A stretch of 64,000 bases of DNA from a virus (lineage: Duplodnaviria > Heunggongvirae > Uroviricota > Caudoviricetes): IMG/VR virus record IMGVR_UViG_3300025853_000035, positions 64,001 through 128,000 of that record; one strand, 5' to 3'. The translations under genes and the position numbers were made by a program. The notes under the pieces were generated by a model, which searched no databases, was not told the DNA's origin, and was given only the letters and a program-made list of their open reading frames with translations. The stretch's first letter is position 1; each line of letters starts with the position of its first letter. Shown here in pieces: positions 1 through 62,924 of the stretch.

Positions 1-11
1 GAACCGCTCCC

Positions 12-92
12 TTAGAGGGATGAACTACAATACTGGCTCTGCCAGTGTAGTTGGGTCAGCGTAAGCTGATGCAAGGCGGTCGTTGTGAACAT
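12..92 (-). CDS. Leader peptide L3 (26 aa, MFTTTALHQLTLTQLHWQSQYCSSSL), putative attenuator peptide
   Basis: Hand-translated; ATG lies 7 nt after the TATACT -10 box (leaderless); 23 of 26 residues are T/L/H/Q/W/S/Y/C. Confidence 0.8.
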   Translation of the reverse strand: MFTTTALHQLTLTQLHWQSQYCSSSL

Positions 93-99
93 GGCGTGG

Positions 100-128
100 A
101 GTATATTCAAACTTTACAGTGATGTCAA
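100..128 (-). promoter_or_regulatory. sigma70-type promoter of the L3 operon
   Basis: TTGACA (128-123), 17-bp spacer, TATACT (105-100), T-rich upstream. Confidence 0.85.
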
Positions 129-159
129 ACAAAAAATGACATTAGGTTGAAAATAGTTC

Positions 160-237
160 TGGAACCCCGTGAGGGATTCGAACCCCCGACCCTGCCGGTA
201 GAAGCGGCGCGCTCTTGATCCGCTGAGCTAACGGGGT
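160..237 (-). tRNA. tRNA-Arg(TCT)
   Basis: Cloverleaf folded by hand; anticodon loop CTTCTAC, TTCGAAT T-loop, encoded CCA. Confidence 0.93.
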
Positions 238-327: not shown

Positions 328-408
328 TGGAGCCGCTGACAGGATTCGAACCTGCATTTGCATCCAGTTACCTTTCTCTCCGTTCGTAGCGGAGGGGGTT
401 ACAGCGGC
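328..408 (-). tRNA. Atypical D-armless tRNA-Arg(ACG)-like RNA
   Basis: Perfect 7-bp acceptor, CTCCG/CGGAG stem with loop CTACGAA, canonical T arm and CCA, no D arm, ~22-nt extra region. Confidence 0.7.
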
Positions 409-748: not shown

Positions 749-823
749 TGGAGCGGGCAACGGGGTTCGAACCCGTGTCTCTGGACTGGCAGACCAGTGC
801 TCTTCCTACTGAGCTATACCTGC
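749..823 (-). tRNA. tRNA-Gly(GCC)
   Basis: Cloverleaf; loop CTGCCAG; CCA. Confidence 0.93.
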
Positions 824-1200
824 ATTTGCCTTTTCTGATGAGGATACAATCGGCTGGTGTAACCCATTTCCGCGTATGTCTTCCGGCGGTGACAGTTCGC
901 GCACCGGACGACACACTTATTGATCTCCTCGATCAGTCGAGGTAACTTTGTTCCGTCTCTGACTGCCTTAGAGACATTGAACTCCTTGGTGGCCCGATCG
1001 ACATGATCAAACTCAAGGACGATTATGTCATCTTCCCCACAGTCTATGCACGGGTGCTTGCTGAGATAGTCGATAACGTATTCTTGCGCTAACTGCCTAC
1101 GAAGAGCTTGCGCCTCAGCGGTGACTTTCCGCATCTTGGCACCGTTCTCGGCATAGTAGTTTTTCGCATAGGCACGTTTCGCCTCATCATCCCAAGCCAA
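814..1200 (-). CDS. HNH endonuclease inside the tRNA operon
   Basis: CIDCGE...LEFDH...CANCH motifs; likely TTG start at 1200 after AAGGAG; the longer ORF-track N-terminus overlaps tRNA-Lys. Confidence 0.85.
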   Translation of the reverse strand: MAWDDEAKRAYAKNYYAENGAKMRKVTAEAQALRRQLAQEYVIDYLSKHPCIDCGEDDIIVLEFDHVDRATKEFNVSKAVRDGTKLPRLIEEINKCVVRCANCHRRKTYAEMGYTSRLYPHQKRQMQV

Positions 1201-4704: not shown

Positions 4705-4816
4705 ATAAATCTGAGGGTCGGAAGGTTCCCTACTCCGCCGCCGAAGCGTGCGTAAGGGTCAAGGTTATCTCCCGGTTGCCTCTGCTCGCCAATGTTGTCC
4801 CGAGCAGACCCAAAAC

Positions 4817-4976: not shown

Positions 4977-4986
4977 ATGTTGAAAC

Positions 4987-5057
4987 TGGTAGCAGTGAGA
5001 GGATGTGCGCCTCTGGGTAGCAGGCTTATGAGGCCCGCCCCGAACTGATCCACTGCT
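4987..5057 (-). tRNA. Atypical tRNA with CAT anticodon (Met or Ile2), no D stem
   Basis: AGCAGTG/CACTGCT acceptor; GCGGGC/GCCTGC stem with loop CTCATAA; AGAGG/CCTCT T-stem with loop CGCACAT; CCA. Confidence 0.68.
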
Positions 5058-5064
5058 ATGAAAC

Positions 5065-5479: not shown

Positions 5480-6490
5480 AAGACACTGAACCTCGCGAAT
5501 ACGCGGGTTAGGTCGCATGTCGGGTAGTTCCGTCGGTCAACGGCTCAGCATCTACAAAGCGAGTGAAATTGTGGTCGGCTTGCTGGCACCAATCCAGAAG
5601 ACAGGTCCGCAGACCTGACCAACCAACCACGGTGATGAATATAGACAGGCTGAGACTACACCCGTTGCGATCTGTCGTTCGGAGGATTACGGAACCCTTG
5701 CGAGGCACCTTGCCACCTTATCCACCAAGCCCTCTTGCGAGTAGCCCGGTCCCAGATCAACGCCGCCTATTTTTCCCGATTCTCACGGGGCCGCTGGCAT
5801 TAGCGGCGACACTGCATGATATTCGGCGATTCCCAGACCGTTGACGTGTTACCGCCATTAAGCCCCCGCGACGGGGCAACGAACTTTCTTTCACCAACCA
5901 CTCTTCGCTTTGCCGGCTAGGAGCAGACCGCATTGGGCGAACCCTGCGGTATTAGGCGTCTTTCACATACAGTCGAAGCAATCTTTGCGTTTTGATATGA
6001 ACTGCTGGGTTCGAACCAGCGATCCACGGATTAAGAGTCCGTTGCTTTACCACTAAGCTAAGTTTGCAAGCCACCGAGACGAGCTACCTCCTAGTTCCAC
6101 TGATGTTTCCACCTGCGGAATGCTAGTCGCCTCATGTCCGTCATGTCGCTAAACACTACCAAGACCGTCGAGCAGGACCTTCACCCTACCAAACTGATCA
6201 TTGCTCTTGACCGCTAAGTCTTGAACTGATGACCTTGTGCTTTATCATCCGCTGCCGCAGGTTAGACACAAGCTCCGGGTTCTACTCCGGCGTTCGAGGT
6301 CACCGATCTGGCTCTCCTCTATCCCCTCAAGGGCCTTGTCCTGCTAACAGCCTAGCTCCCGTTACCAGAAGCGATCCTCGCGGACCTGACTGCACTTGCT
6401 TGAATTGACCGGCAAGCCGGCGGAGTTATGTGGCCATACCTCCTTTACGTTGGTTACCCAACGCTATCCCCCTCAAGCGGGGTGTTCCTG
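5480..6490 (-). ncRNA. Large structured non-coding RNA candidate (GOLLD-like), boundaries approximate
   Basis: ~1 kb with no credible ORF, own promoter, many hairpins, embedded tRNA-like fold, next to tRNA operons. Confidence 0.6.
5993..6067 (-). tRNA. tRNA-Lys(CTT)-like element embedded in the large RNA
   Basis: Canonical D arm, ACGGA/TCCGT stem with loop CTCTTAA and TTCGAAC T-loop, but mismatched acceptor stem ending TCA instead of CCA. Confidence 0.7.
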
Positions 6491-9204: not shown

Positions 9205-9378
9205 ATGCAATCACTTTCCAATGATTCCCTGAACGCGCACTTCGCCGCGATCGAAGAGGGGATGACCGACGCCGGCAAGGCGAAGAGCGTTGAGACTGTC
9301 CGCCTGATGCAAATGCTGCGGGACCGGGCGGCGCAAGGCGGTTTCCGCAACCAGCCGATCATACTGCACCGCCCATGA
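9205..9378 (+). CDS. Small hypothetical protein
   Basis: Follows a TTGACA box at ~9169; stop overlaps the helicase ATG. Confidence 0.55.
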   Translation: MQSLSNDSLNAHFAAIEEGMTDAGKAKSVETVRLMQMLRDRAAQGGFRNQPIILHRP

Positions 9379-14165: not shown

Positions 14166-14706
14166 ATGGGATCAGTTCTTCATCGGCATGGCAGACTATG
14201 TCTCCACCCGATCGAAGGACCCCAGCACCAAGGTCGGCGCGGTCATCGTTCGCCCCGACGGCAAGACGATCGCCAGCCTCGGCTACAACGGCTTCCCGCG
14301 TGGGATGTCGGACGACCCGGCGCTCTACGCTGACCGGGAGGTCAAATACAGCCGCATCGTCCACGCCGAGATGAACGCCATCCTGAACGCGGGCGGCTCC
14401 GTTGATGGCTGCACGCTCTACACCTCGAAGCTACCGCCGTGCGATCGCTGTGCCGTCTTCGTGGCTCAGGCCGGGATCACCCGCGTCGTCTACGAGAACC
14501 CGGCCCCGGAGGTCGCCGAACGCTGGGCGGCCAGTCTCGCCAAGACGCAGGAAATCTTCGCCGACGCCGGCATCCCCATGATCGGTATCGATTTCCCGCG
14601 CCCGGCCGGGAAGATCAACGTCATGCTGATGTCCAAGGCTCCGACGATCTCGGAAACGCTGGTTCATCTCTGGCGCGCGATCAAGACCAAATTCTCCCTC
14701 CGCTAA
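14140..14706 (+). CDS. dCMP deaminase
   Basis: SKDPSTKVGAVIV, GYNG, HAEMNAI, PCDRC. Confidence 0.93.
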   Translation: MDSNTKQAEWDQFFIGMADYVSTRSKDPSTKVGAVIVRPDGKTIASLGYNGFPRGMSDDPALYADREVKYSRIVHAEMNAILNAGGSVDGCTLYTSKLPPCDRCAVFVAQAGITRVVYENPAPEVAERWAASLAKTQEIFADAGIPMIGIDFPRPAGKINVMLMSKAPTISETLVHLWRAIKTKFSLR

Positions 14707-60900: not shown

Positions 60901-62924
60901 ACGGCGATGGAGGTGGCGACACTGTTGCGGAACGCCAGCATCGAAGTCGCAGCGACGCGAGCATAGCCGCTCAATCCCTGCATCGCCTGCGACGAGGCGA
61001 TCAGGTTGAACTTCTGGCCGGCCAGCATCGCCGAGAAGCTGGCACCGGCCGTGCGGGCAGCGCCGAGCGCGCCGACAAGCTGGAGCAGCGGCGTGACCAT
61101 GAAGCGACCGATCTGGAGGGTGGCCGACATGATCATCCACTTACCCATCAGATTGAGCGTGGTGGACAGCGGTCCCTTGATCGAATCCCAATTCTCGAAA
61201 AGCCAGTTGAACGCGTTGGACAGGCTATCGACAGCCTTCTTCAAGCCCTCGCCGATCGCGGTGGCGTAGCGGTCGATCGCCGCCGGGTCCATCCGGTCGG
61301 TGATGCTACGCAGCAGGTTCGCGAAGGCTTCGTTACCACCGCGTTCGCCGACTGCCTGATAGAACTCGTTGACCTTGTTCTTGAGAACAGTCATCTGGAA
61401 CGAAGGGCGATCCATCGCCTGTGCCATGGCCGGACCGAAGTCCTGCTTCATGCGGTCAGCGACGTGCTTGAGGACGCCCTGTGCGTCGAGCGCCTTTTTC
61501 TTGAGGCCGTCTTCCAGCGTCATCCCCAGCGACTTGGCGTATTCGGCGGCATAGGCCATCGCGCCCGGCAGCTTTTCGTTAAGCTGCTGGTTGAGTTCTT
61601 CGGCCGACAGATAGCCCTTGTTCATGACCTGTTGCAGCGCCAGCCACACGTCATTCTGCCCTGCGGTCGTAACACCGAGAACAGCCATGGAGGTCGAGAA
61701 GCCTTCGAAGATGTGCTGCGTCTGCGAGACCGTCATGCCGGTCTTGTTCGCGGCGATCGCGACCTTACCGAAGCCTTGGGCAGCAGCCAGCGCGTCCATA
61801 CCGAACTTGTTGGCGGTCTGGTTGATGTAGCTAAGCTGCGTGTTCGCGAAGGCGGTTTCCTTGTTCATGACGCTCATCTGCGCCTTGAACTGGATTGCCG
61901 CGTTCGCGGCCTCGAAGAAGTTACGTCCGACTTCGGCGATCGTCAGCGATCCCAGCAGCGATCGCAGCAAGGAGCCAACTTGGAAGGTAGCCGAGAATGC
62001 GTTTTGCAGCCCCATCATCTGGAGCGACGCGCCTTGCGCCTGCGAGCCTACACGGCCGAGTGATCCGCCCAGACCACCGAGGCCCGAGCGGAGTCCGCCA
62101 AGGGACTTCCCGGCGTTGGCTGCGGCGTTTGCGATGGCGTGAAGCGCGGTGGCAACCTGCGTCGCGTTCGGCGGCACACGCATGGAAGCGACTGCCGCAA
62201 CGAAGGATTGCAGGTTACGGATTTGAGCCTGAGTGGGAGCACGGAACGAACCGATCGCGCCGAGGGTCGCGTAGAAGTTGCCCGATCCGCTGAGGTTGTT
62301 GAATCGGAACTGACGCATGGCCATCGCCAACGCGTTGAGGTTCGTGATCTGGTTCGCCGACGGCGCACGCAGGCCCTTCATCGCGCCCGAGATGGTGTTG
62401 ATCCCAGCAGCGGCCGACGAGAGATTCTTGATTCCGGCAAGCGCGTTCAGGCCCGGCGCAGCCTTGAGGCCGGCAGCACCGAACGCAGCGAGATTTTTGG
62501 CTTGGGTTTGCGACGGGGCCTTGAACCCGTTCATGGCTTCGGTCAGGCCCTTCAACGACTTGACCGAGCGATAGGCCGCCGACAGGTCGGGTAGGCCGCT
62601 CAGGGTCGAGAAGAACTTCTTCGCGTTGGCGCTTTGCGCTTGGCTCGGGGCCTTGAAGCCGACCATAGCCGACGACAAGGCGGACAGCTTCTTAGCTGCG
62701 CCCGTGTCGATGTCGATCTTGGAGAATGCCTGAACCGACTTCTTGAAAGCGTTCAGGGCTTGGGGGTTGGAGGACGCCTTGGCGACGCCCTTCATCGTCT
62801 TATCGACGTGAGCTTCGAACTGACTCAGGGACTTGAAAATGCCATCGACAGCCGCCCGGTAGTCGCGAAAACCTTTCGCGACCCCGGTGGTGTCAACTAC
62901 AAACTTCATGCCATGGGTGTCCAT
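57987..62924 (-). CDS. Tape measure protein
   Basis: 1645 aa, Ala-rich helical; LQQVMNKGYLSAEELNQQLNE tape-measure motif; C-terminal GGIPAVLHDNEAVIPL. Confidence 0.93.
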   Translation of the reverse strand: MDTHGMKFVVDTTGVAKGFRDYRAAVDGIFKSLSQFEAHVDKTMKGVAKASSNPQALNAFKKSVQAFSKIDIDTGAAKKLSALSSAMVGFKAPSQAQSANAKKFFSTLSGLPDLSAAYRSVKSLKGLTEAMNGFKAPSQTQAKNLAAFGAAGLKAAPGLNALAGIKNLSSAAAGINTISGAMKGLRAPSANQITNLNALAMAMRQFRFNNLSGSGNFYATLGAIGSFRAPTQAQIRNLQSFVAAVASMRVPPNATQVATALHAIANAAANAGKSLGGLRSGLGGLGGSLGRVGSQAQGASLQMMGLQNAFSATFQVGSLLRSLLGSLTIAEVGRNFFEAANAAIQFKAQMSVMNKETAFANTQLSYINQTANKFGMDALAAAQGFGKVAIAANKTGMTVSQTQHIFEGFSTSMAVLGVTTAGQNDVWLALQQVMNKGYLSAEELNQQLNEKLPGAMAYAAEYAKSLGMTLEDGLKKKALDAQGVLKHVADRMKQDFGPAMAQAMDRPSFQMTVLKNKVNEFYQAVGERGGNEAFANLLRSITDRMDPAAIDRYATAIGEGLKKAVDSLSNAFNWLFENWDSIKGPLSTTLNLMGKWMIMSATLQIGRFMVTPLLQLVGALGAARTAGASFSAMLAGQKFNLIASSQAMQGLSGYARVAATSMLAFRNSVATSIAVSRAAGLSFAATAASLMTLNNAGLAAAAGLRGLVNLLGGPVILTMAAVAASGYMLWDQWNEGTKAITGTEEASKKIKDRLNEVTTSLYLNNAAAIEARNKQSGLGGVMGLVTTAMEIYRQKMDEVTGGLWSQADAVRNLAIEKAKLAVTEARANLTASQMETPDELFAQGRNLRKNGRGWFQKGVLGTYSTLRGYGEQFSSWSGIDPSVEDKRSAVATNRNTLAQAEATLAQAQGTTTMDIVDGMKRDRERWAAGVTKPDRVTPTEKGDGAGKAAREAKALSTAVDGLMRKLSESNDLWKLSQDYVADLTSEARTLLNDGSFKQWSQNLQTDFKAGKVSADSLIKSLEQPGAISQKTLTELKNRYGTDVQGIIDMLRAQQADYEDAVKDATIKQIDRQLVYLDRAMNRLADNSPAIKLNIDFAADMQAGAKGLMSKDQFVGFTDTLRGLRAGTVSAEAATAEFNTRLLASADITKLTKEQTDALTAATNRNLAALNYQKAQAAENAAFGATRLRQMREENAVLMLNASQQSIYSDVLEEVRTRLEKGESVTQAQIQGYVRQAEALSSLNDQLKRNKEFFENNGIRSYLNGLKSVGEAANELDKNVLQSLEDQLFNLGTKGKFSFKAIFDTIQQGLIRASSQKITEGITKMFTSKEDRENGTASPMGKLFEMIGLGKYEPKQAAPLGSSAASAMWVQLVNGISPTTGQQTAINPTTGLPNNAAVSGTDPASTIVNAVASITGGNAAGTTTSTTGSSTPPPAVTEAATQTAQTFGSSLTSLMPAIGASFSSAFNGPIAGISQMFAQMLAQQMTGGTGGGMGSTLGAVGGMLGSTLGKAIGGKTGAAIGGALGTIAGTVGGAYLGGFKEGGIVGSPVTKSFATPSMFVNAPHYKEGTANTSGGIPAVLHDNEAVIPLSRGRKVPVDLGGAAKKGTQVNQVFNIQTPDANSFRKSDQQIASNMHAQAARAYRRNN

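Follow-up and report, generated by a model that had tools for sequence, protein, structure and literature searches.

A leader open reading frame whose codons match the tRNA genes behind it: a candidate leader-peptide attenuator in a Lacusarx-type phage

L3 is a short open reading frame (ORF) that serves as the leader of the third tRNA operon in a large Lacusarx-type phage of sphingomonad bacteria, and nearly all of its codons specify the eight amino acids (Thr, Leu, His, Gln, Trp, Ser, Tyr, and Cys) for which tRNAs are encoded behind it. We consider a ribosome-mediated, multivalent leader-peptide attenuator of the tRNA operon, working with a homeostatic logic, to be the most likely mechanism and a reasonably probable one, and the phage probably senses slow decoding via L3 and adjusts its own tRNA production.

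The phage is represented by an IMG/VR virus record of 151,382 bp (60% G+C), of which bases 64,001 to 128,000 (64,000 nucleotides [nt]) form the stretch analyzed here, referred to as the window. L3 and its promoter span window positions 12 to 128, from the stop codon through the −35 box; flanking sequence was read from contig positions 62,501 to 66,100 (termed L001 herein; the window position equals the L001 position minus 1500). All relevant features of the L3 unit lie on the minus strand, as do all L001 positions given for it below, and the coordinates were verified by script. The upstream boundary of the unit is tRNA-Arg(tct) (window 160 to 237), the last gene of the preceding tRNA block. 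The nearest isolated relative is the Sphingobium phage Lacusarx, followed by the Erythrobacter phages XM05 and vB_EliS-L02; these three were the only matches among isolated phages in a blastn search, and a gene of 541 amino acids downstream of the tRNA array had Lacusarx as its sole match in the relative search. An exact-pattern scan of the metagenome collection returned two true relatives and 13 chance matches. The comparison set comprises eight phages (the present phage, the three isolates, and four distinct IMG/VR phages), and the covariation analysis is limited to these eight sequences.

The sequence-only reading had predicted from the peptide that the operon continuing past position 1 encodes tRNAs for Thr, Leu, His, Gln, Trp, Ser, Tyr, and Cys. 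A tRNA search to the left of position 1 had been set beforehand as the test of this prediction, and neither an absence of tRNAs nor an unrelated set was found. ARAGORN detected tRNA-Ser(cga), -Leu(cag), -Leu(gag), -Leu(caa), -Thr(cgt), -His(gtg), -Gln(ctg), -Gln(ttg), -Ser(gct), -Cys(gca), and -Trp(cca) at default settings, and tRNA-Tyr(gta) at a relaxed threshold of 90%; the latter is homologous to a tRNA-Tyr called at default settings in vB_EliS-L02 and brings the array to 12 tRNAs, which cover exactly the eight amino acids. The exact match of the downstream tRNAs to the amino acid set of the peptide counts in favor of attenuation. Eleven other amino acids are already covered by tRNAs inside the window, and their complement would have given nearly the same list, so the prediction was not entirely independent, although the composition of the peptide is an objective fact. 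The first gene is tRNA-Ser(cga) (L001 1478 to 1392), followed by a gap of 161 nt that contains an intrinsic terminator and tRNA-Tyr(gta) (L001 1323 to 1237), and by ten further tRNAs, the last of which is tRNA-Trp(cca) (L001 333 to 258). The array ends at another promoter and then a protein gene. This promoter after tRNA-Trp opens a mini-ORF of 4 codons (MASA, then a stop) ahead of the protein gene.

The promoter of L3 consists of a −35 hexamer TTGACA (window 123 to 128), a −10 hexamer TATACT (100 to 105) located 17 nt past it, and a 7-nt discriminator (93 to 99) that separates the −10 hexamer from the ATG (92 to 90). It scores 11 of 12 in a consensus scan and is one of three strong minus-strand promoter sites in the surrounding 3.6 kb. 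Only eight strict TTGACA-N17-TANNNT sites exist in the 151 kb; none is on the plus strand, and each of the three tRNA blocks is headed by one of them. An alignment of all eight phages shows an invariant TTGAC[AT], a −10 hexamer of TATACT or TATCAT, and a discriminator of variable sequence that always has a C before the ATG. The ATG had been placed 7 nt after TATACT from the sequence alone, which is exact, and the same spacing is found in all eight phages. No Shine-Dalgarno sequence was found upstream of the ATG. Transcription likely starts on the A of the ATG and would yield a leaderless mRNA, as suggested by the invariant 7-nt spacing in eight phages. A scan from the preceding tRNA block to the L3 promoter found no terminator, so some transcripts may enter from upstream and the ORF would not be leaderless on those, a point that counts against attenuation. 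In two further promoters of the phage, exactly 7 nt again separate the −10 hexamer from an ATG (L001 206 to 150, at contig position ∼62706, and contig position ∼138053, both on the minus strand).

The ORF (window 12 to 92) has 26 codons and a TAA stop codon (14 to 12) and encodes MFTTTALHQLTLTQLHWQSQYCSSSL. After the initiator Met, 23 of its 25 residues belong to the eight-amino-acid set, which makes up 30% of the residues in the long ORFs of the phage (binomial P = 1.6e-10), a bias that argues for attenuation. Among the 1,482 ATG-initiated ORFs of 15 to 45 codons in the six frames of the whole genome, L3 ranks first for its set, and the fraction of set residues is 0.92 in its own frame compared to 0.40 and 0.32 in the other frames. 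The wide sampling of synonymous codons, unusual ones included, that had been noticed from the sequence alone is real: 21 distinct codons are used at 25 positions compared to 16.1 ± 1.4 expected from the codon usage of the phage (P ∼1e-4), which counts in favor of attenuation. Rare codons in L3 include ACA, TTG, CTA, AGT, and TCA, and the ORF contains codons used for only 2 to 7% of their amino acid.

The suggestion that L3 tests each isoacceptor was borne out only partly. Under simple wobble rules, the tRNAs of its own block can read 17 of the 25 codons, but six of the 23 set-matching codons (ACA, ACC twice, CTA, TCA, and TCC) have no phage tRNA here, which counts against attenuation and implies that a sensor would read the combined tRNA pool of host and phage. 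One relative (L010) encodes tRNA-Thr(tgt), -Thr(ggt), -Leu(tag), -Leu(taa), and -Ser(tga) and thereby serves nearly all of these codons; with the fullest tRNA set among the relatives, its own block can read 20 of its 26 leader codons. L3 looks like a census of a fuller ancestral tRNA set.

The L3 unit is conserved in all eight phages as TTGAC[AT], 17 nt, TATACT or TATCAT, 7 variable nucleotides ending in C, and then ATG TTC ACA. The reading frame stays open over 22 to 27 codons and retains one or more codons for every amino acid of the set despite insertions and deletions, which counts in favor of attenuation. All homologs share the start MFTQTAL, and the order of the later residues differs by lineage, with Trp, Cys, Tyr, and His codons swapping places. 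Because the residue order is shuffled while the coverage of the eight amino acids is kept, selection appears to act on the codons present rather than on the peptide sequence. Conservation of the first 22 nt (MFTQTAL) extends to synonymous sites, which counts against attenuation and could reflect a role at the RNA level or at the peptide level. Short ORFs are common, and the 5′ pattern of L3 has 13 unrelated matches in the metagenome collection, so L3 might be a chance ORF without function; we consider this very improbable, because these 13 matches, which served as a negative control, have no tRNAs downstream and an ordinary composition, whereas the L3 unit is conserved in eight phages and its composition is statistically extreme.

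Two other leaders are present in the same phage. The Pro-block leader (window 5379 to 5287, minus strand) precedes tRNAs for Pro, Pro, Val, Val, Ala, Asn, and Ile, and the Lys-block leader (window 1534 to 1472, minus strand) precedes tRNAs for Lys, Lys, Gly, Gly, Asp, Glu, Glu, an Arg-like tRNA, Phe, and Arg. Each of the three leaders ranks first of the 1,482 ORFs for the amino acids of its own block, with own-block fractions of 0.76, 0.89, and 0.92 and fractions of at most 0.14 for the other blocks, which supports attenuation. The Lys block has the same layout as the L3 unit (leader, first tRNA, terminator, and remaining tRNAs), and in the Pro block the terminator directly follows the leader. 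The Pro-block and Lys-block leaders are not leaderless, and in all relatives their 5′ untranslated regions share a small hairpin and CAGGATTT ∼15 nt before the ATG.

An automated composition test, in which short ORFs located ≤250 nt upstream of a tRNA were scored for their fit to the amino acids of the tRNA block that follows, recovered the three leaders here and in the relatives. The same test gave strong matches in phiCbK-like phages of Brevundimonas and Caulobacter: Bajun (L014 7802 to 7930 and 10690 to 10785), CcrPW (L015 7102 to 7221 and 14054 to 14149), and BL57 (L016 7159 to 7296 and 9043 to 9141). These leaders have no sequence similarity to L3, but like L3 they follow in composition the tRNAs behind them. 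The phiCbK-like phages partition their tRNAs differently, with Gln and Arg grouped with Val, Ile, Asn, and Tyr or Phe, and with Pro and Lys grouped with Leu, His, and Ser. The first-listed leader of each pair is rich in Pro, Lys, Leu, His, Ser, Thr, and Ala, and the second in Tyr, Arg, Gln, Asn, Val, Ile, and Phe. Between the clades, at least four amino acids (Gln, Arg, Pro, and Lys) thus moved to another block and the leader composition followed each time, which provides independent support for a link between leader and block. In the leaders of the Tyr/Arg/Gln/Asn/Val/Ile/Phe type, the ATG lies 7 nt after the −10 hexamer. Unlike in the L3 unit, the terminator directly follows the ORF, with no tRNA in between; in the same leaders it is strong and GC-rich and carries a U run. 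Two of the phiCbK-like leader ORFs are annotated merely as hypothetical proteins, and we found no description in the literature of such ORFs before the tRNA blocks of these phages. After the leader's terminator, the Caulobacter phages BL57 (L016 ∼9243 to 9260) and CcrPW (L015 ∼14243 to 14260) have a second mini-ORF, led by a Shine-Dalgarno sequence (MNNGG, then a stop), which precedes a Tyr-like tRNA that is absent from the record annotation.

Several further observations concern the tRNA region itself. A GOLLD RNA match (window 5647 to 6133, minus strand; 140.1 bits, with a gathering score of 150; E = 5e-38) immediately precedes the promoter of the first tRNA block and encloses a tRNA-Lys(ctt)-like gene (5994 to 6068). 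An odd tRNA (window 331 to 408, minus strand) scores 32.8 bits with the Rfam tRNA model and was missed by ARAGORN even at the relaxed threshold; its anticodon loop CTACGAA points to Arg(ACG), and it seemingly lacks a normal D arm and has an extra arm of ∼22 nt. An HNH endonuclease ORF (window ∼814 to 1200, minus strand) is located in tRNA block B between the Lys(ttt) and Gly(gcc) genes, and its Lacusarx homolog (L002 6908 to 7265) occupies another site of the array, in the interval from tRNA-Phe to the L3 promoter; these different places suggest a mobile homing endonuclease within tRNA arrays. Three structured-looking gaps of 88 to 112 nt in which no tRNA was called occur in the tRNA blocks (window 4977 to 5064 and 4705 to 4816 and L001 773 to 869, all on the minus strand), and the one at 4977 to 5064 has a Met-like anticodon loop (CTCATAA) where relatives encode a tRNA-Met. 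In the Lacusarx record, a tRNA with anticodon cag (L002 7655 to 7739) is annotated as tRNA-Ser, and ARAGORN reads it as tRNA-Leu(cag).

The L3 leader of 114 nt folds into three hairpins with −38.9 kcal/mol (z = −3.3; none of 200 shuffled sequences was as good). Hairpin H1 (window 56 to 69), with the stem TCAGC/GCTGA and the loop TTAC, and hairpin H2 (window 23 to 52), with ∼12 bp and holding Trp, Tyr, Cys, Ser, and Gln codons, both lie within the ORF and are present in the minimum free energy (MFE) as well as the centroid folds; H2 is the long hairpin that had been noticed in the ORF from the sequence alone. Hairpin C (L001 1511 to 1486), with a GC stem of 8 to 9 bp, begins with its 5′ arm GGGAGCGG directly after the stop codon and lies mostly beyond the window edge, so that window positions 1 to 11 hold this arm and the start of the loop. 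It has no U tract, and tRNA-Ser(cga) starts 7 nt after it. A TCCC/GGGA hairpin around the stop codon had also been proposed; the complementarity exists (window 20 to 8) but is not favored, since GGGA belongs to the 5′ arm of hairpin C, which out-competes this pairing in MFE and centroid folds, and we rejected it as a functional element. A truncated tRNA or tmRNA at the window edge was likewise considered and dropped: neither ARAGORN nor Rfam found one, and the edge consists of the hairpin C 5′ arm. A cmscan search with E values up to 1 over window positions 1 to 160 and L001 1479 to 1630 gave no match to the T-box or any other Rfam family.

All three hairpins keep their pairing in the relatives through changes on both sides. 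The H1 stem varies from CAGC/GCTG to CTGC/GCAG to AGCC/GGCT around a constant CTTACG, H2 is kept by RNAalifold in all eight phages with both-side changes at several pairs, and the hairpin C stem shows the compensatory forms GCGG/CCGC, GTGG/CCAC, and GCAGC/GCTGC. Conserved hairpins with compensatory changes, together with the nucleotide-level conservation of the first 22 nt, would also be expected if L3 were mainly a structured RNA (a signal for precursor processing or folding) or encoded a functional small peptide, with the match to the tRNA set as a side effect of such constraints; reverse-complement codon pairs in the set (CAG/CTG, CAA/TTG, TGT/ACA, and AGT/ACT) make hairpins easy to form. 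We think this improbable, because the enrichment is confined to one frame, every homolog covers the eight amino acids, and the residue order is not conserved in the C-terminal two-thirds. Moreover, the two other leaders of the phage fit their respective blocks through a very different choice of amino acids, the phiCbK-like leaders follow a different tRNA grouping, and the L3 region belongs to no known Rfam family.

The terminator (hairpin at L001 1372 to 1344, U run to 1333) has a folding energy of −19.1 kcal/mol (z = −4.0) and the tail UUUUUUGUUUU. The expectation that the tRNAs lie behind a terminator was thus right as to its presence, but it sits after the first gene, tRNA-Ser(cga), rather than directly behind the ORF; this position is common to the seven relatives, too, in which the hairpin has −19 to −26 kcal/mol and a U run, with internal covariation across the eight phages. 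Eleven of the 12 tRNAs lie behind it, and the scan found no promoter-like site between the terminator and these eleven tRNAs, so they need read-through of the terminator, either conditional or leaky; this strong, covarying terminator counts in favor of attenuation. The 87-nt tRNA between leader and terminator, unlike in classical attenuators, counts against attenuation.

A possible link between leader and terminator is the loop of hairpin C. CTGACGC, the core of this loop, is invariant; it complements the terminator 5′ arm (GCGTCAG) in 54 of 56 cells, and in RNA form (CUGACGC) it is nearly identical to the terminator's own 3′ arm. In all eight phages, the best duplex between the leader and the terminator 5′ arm involves the segment after the stop codon (−16 to −20 kcal/mol), which counts in favor of attenuation. 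Since loop and terminator arm are both invariant, no covariation supports the pairing, and in Lacusarx the terminator has changed on both of its own arms while the loop is unchanged, which counts against it. The loop layout of 1 to 2 nt, 7 nt, and 0 to 1 nt (2, 7, and 1 nt in the L3 unit) would suit an H-type pseudoknot, and a folded tRNA-Ser would bring the loop and the terminator 5′ arm close together. Two other candidate contacts were set aside. An 8-bp match of the H2 3′ side (GAGCCAGT) to the terminator (ACTGGCTC) is not kept in the relatives, is no better than in shuffles, and was treated as chance; a long-range helix proposed by RNAalifold between codons 5 to 7 (ACCGCCUU) and the 5′ end of tRNA-Ser has weak pairs, competes with the acceptor stem, and was not adopted.

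Pseudoknot-free equilibrium folding with ribosome masks at every codon gave no consistent ribosome-dependent switch across the phages, which counts against attenuation. The global MFE of these calculations misfolds the tRNA, and pseudoknots lie outside the model; the results do not inform on the direction of the switch. With XM05 and Lacusarx, the terminator arm ceased to be captured only when a ribosome stood at the last codons or at the stop codon, which is the classical direction, and such capture was not predicted in the present phage or in the group of L007.

The favored attenuation mechanism would operate as follows. Transcription would start at or next to the AUG, and ribosomes would load on the leaderless mRNA. 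As the 26 codons sample, with many synonymous codons, the eight amino acids of the tRNAs encoded downstream, the speed of a ribosome over L3 would report the supply of exactly those charged tRNAs. This signal would decide whether RNA polymerase stops at the terminator after tRNA-Ser(cga) or reads on into the genes for Tyr, Leu (three), Thr, His, Gln (two), Ser, Cys, and Trp. The likely link would be hairpin C, whose invariant loop CUGACGC may pair with the terminator 5′ arm and whose own 5′ arm would be melted by a ribosome at the end of the ORF. With the favored homeostatic logic, slow decoding would lead to read-through and more tRNA, and fast decoding to termination.

A translated codon sensor could also be wired differently, either as a feed-forward device in which efficient translation promotes read-through, so that tRNAs are produced only if translation is working, or with Rho loading, processing by RNase P or RNase E, or precursor stability as its output. 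Arrival of a ribosome at the stop codon would open the 5′ arm of hairpin C and leave the CUGACGC loop accessible just beyond the ribosomal footprint, and this could favor antitermination on complete translation; hairpin C lacks a U tract and lies 7 nt before the RNase P site of tRNA-Ser, and the folding models leave the direction of the switch unsettled. However, tRNA shortage is the very condition in which a feed-forward design would reduce the supply, the modelled loss of terminator-arm capture in XM05 and Lacusarx follows the classical direction, and the phiCbK-like units show a plain geometry of leader and then terminator. We therefore consider such wiring unlikely, although it is the alternative to homeostatic attenuation that we take most seriously.

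Leader-peptide attenuators are well known from enterobacteria, where the ilvGMEDA leader carries Ile, Leu, and Val codons and the thr leader Thr and Ile codons; further examples are trpL, hisL, leuL, and pheL. Like L3, they have a short 5′ ORF that is enriched in the relevant codons, a conserved intrinsic terminator before the regulated genes, and hairpins that overlap the ORF and its stop codon, and they can sense more than one amino acid, as proposed for L3. L3 differs from them in several respects: it samples eight amino acids once or a few times each with varied codons instead of runs of a single codon, its mRNA is apparently leaderless, a complete tRNA gene lies between leader and terminator, and it is a phage element. 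The targets differ as well, since in the enterobacterial family the regulated genes are those that make or charge the sensed amino acid, such as biosynthetic enzymes, whereas the putative targets of L3 are tRNA genes; to our knowledge, no leader-peptide attenuator with a tRNA gene target has been described. The pheM leader of Escherichia coli pheST attenuates an aminoacyl-tRNA synthetase gene and senses Phe. As proposed for L3, what it regulates is part of the decoding machinery and not of a biosynthetic pathway, but it senses one amino acid, has a synthetase as its target, and is cellular rather than of phage origin. T-box riboswitches, which regulate synthetase and amino acid genes, bind uncharged tRNA directly and need no ORF; they resemble the mechanism proposed for L3 in sensing tRNA status and switching between terminator and antiterminator in cis and differ from it in the direct, ORF-independent binding of uncharged tRNA, and the L3 region has no Rfam match. 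Leaderless short polycysteine ORFs of mycobacteria are cysteine-responsive attenuators (bioRxiv 10.1101/834739). As proposed for L3, their mRNA is reported to start at the start codon of a short regulatory ORF and codon-specific stalling to control a downstream operon, and they differ from L3 in having runs of one codon type and protein-coding targets, in belonging to actinobacteria, and in the absence of tRNA genes.

We found no mention of a leader peptide or of attenuation for tRNA genes in the literature, including the genome papers on Lacusarx, vB_EliS-L02, and phiCbK (PMC5648845, PMC9127768, and PMC3556154). If the proposed mechanism is true, classical attenuation would extend to a new class of target genes, with a multivalent sensor for eight amino acids on a leaderless mRNA. 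Leader ORFs of tRNA blocks are also a new annotation feature, as they are currently either unannotated or listed as hypothetical proteins, and from their composition one can predict which tRNAs an incomplete phage contig should carry, as was done here. Three relatives are in culture together with their hosts (Lacusarx with Sphingobium sp. IP1, and vB_EliS-L02 and XM05 with Erythrobacter), so that ordinary experiments suffice.

For decades there has been debate over the reasons for which phages carry tRNA genes and over the control of these genes; the proposals include compensation for codon usage, substitution for degraded host tRNAs, and escape from anticodon nucleases. We tentatively suggest, as a possibility to which we would not yet commit, that large phages make tRNAs on demand, with each block gated by a leader that takes a codon census; in the L3 unit, the first tRNA would be built into the switch, a pseudoknot-type loop would meet the terminator arm, and translation of the leaderless ORF would decide on read-through into eleven tRNAs. 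If this were true, phage tRNA arrays would be tied to the sensing of tRNA depletion, for example, during host shut-off or by anticodon nucleases. If the proposed attenuation is true, the phage would measure the decoding speed for defined sets of amino acids and match its tRNA synthesis to it, providing a testable link between tRNA supply and expression.
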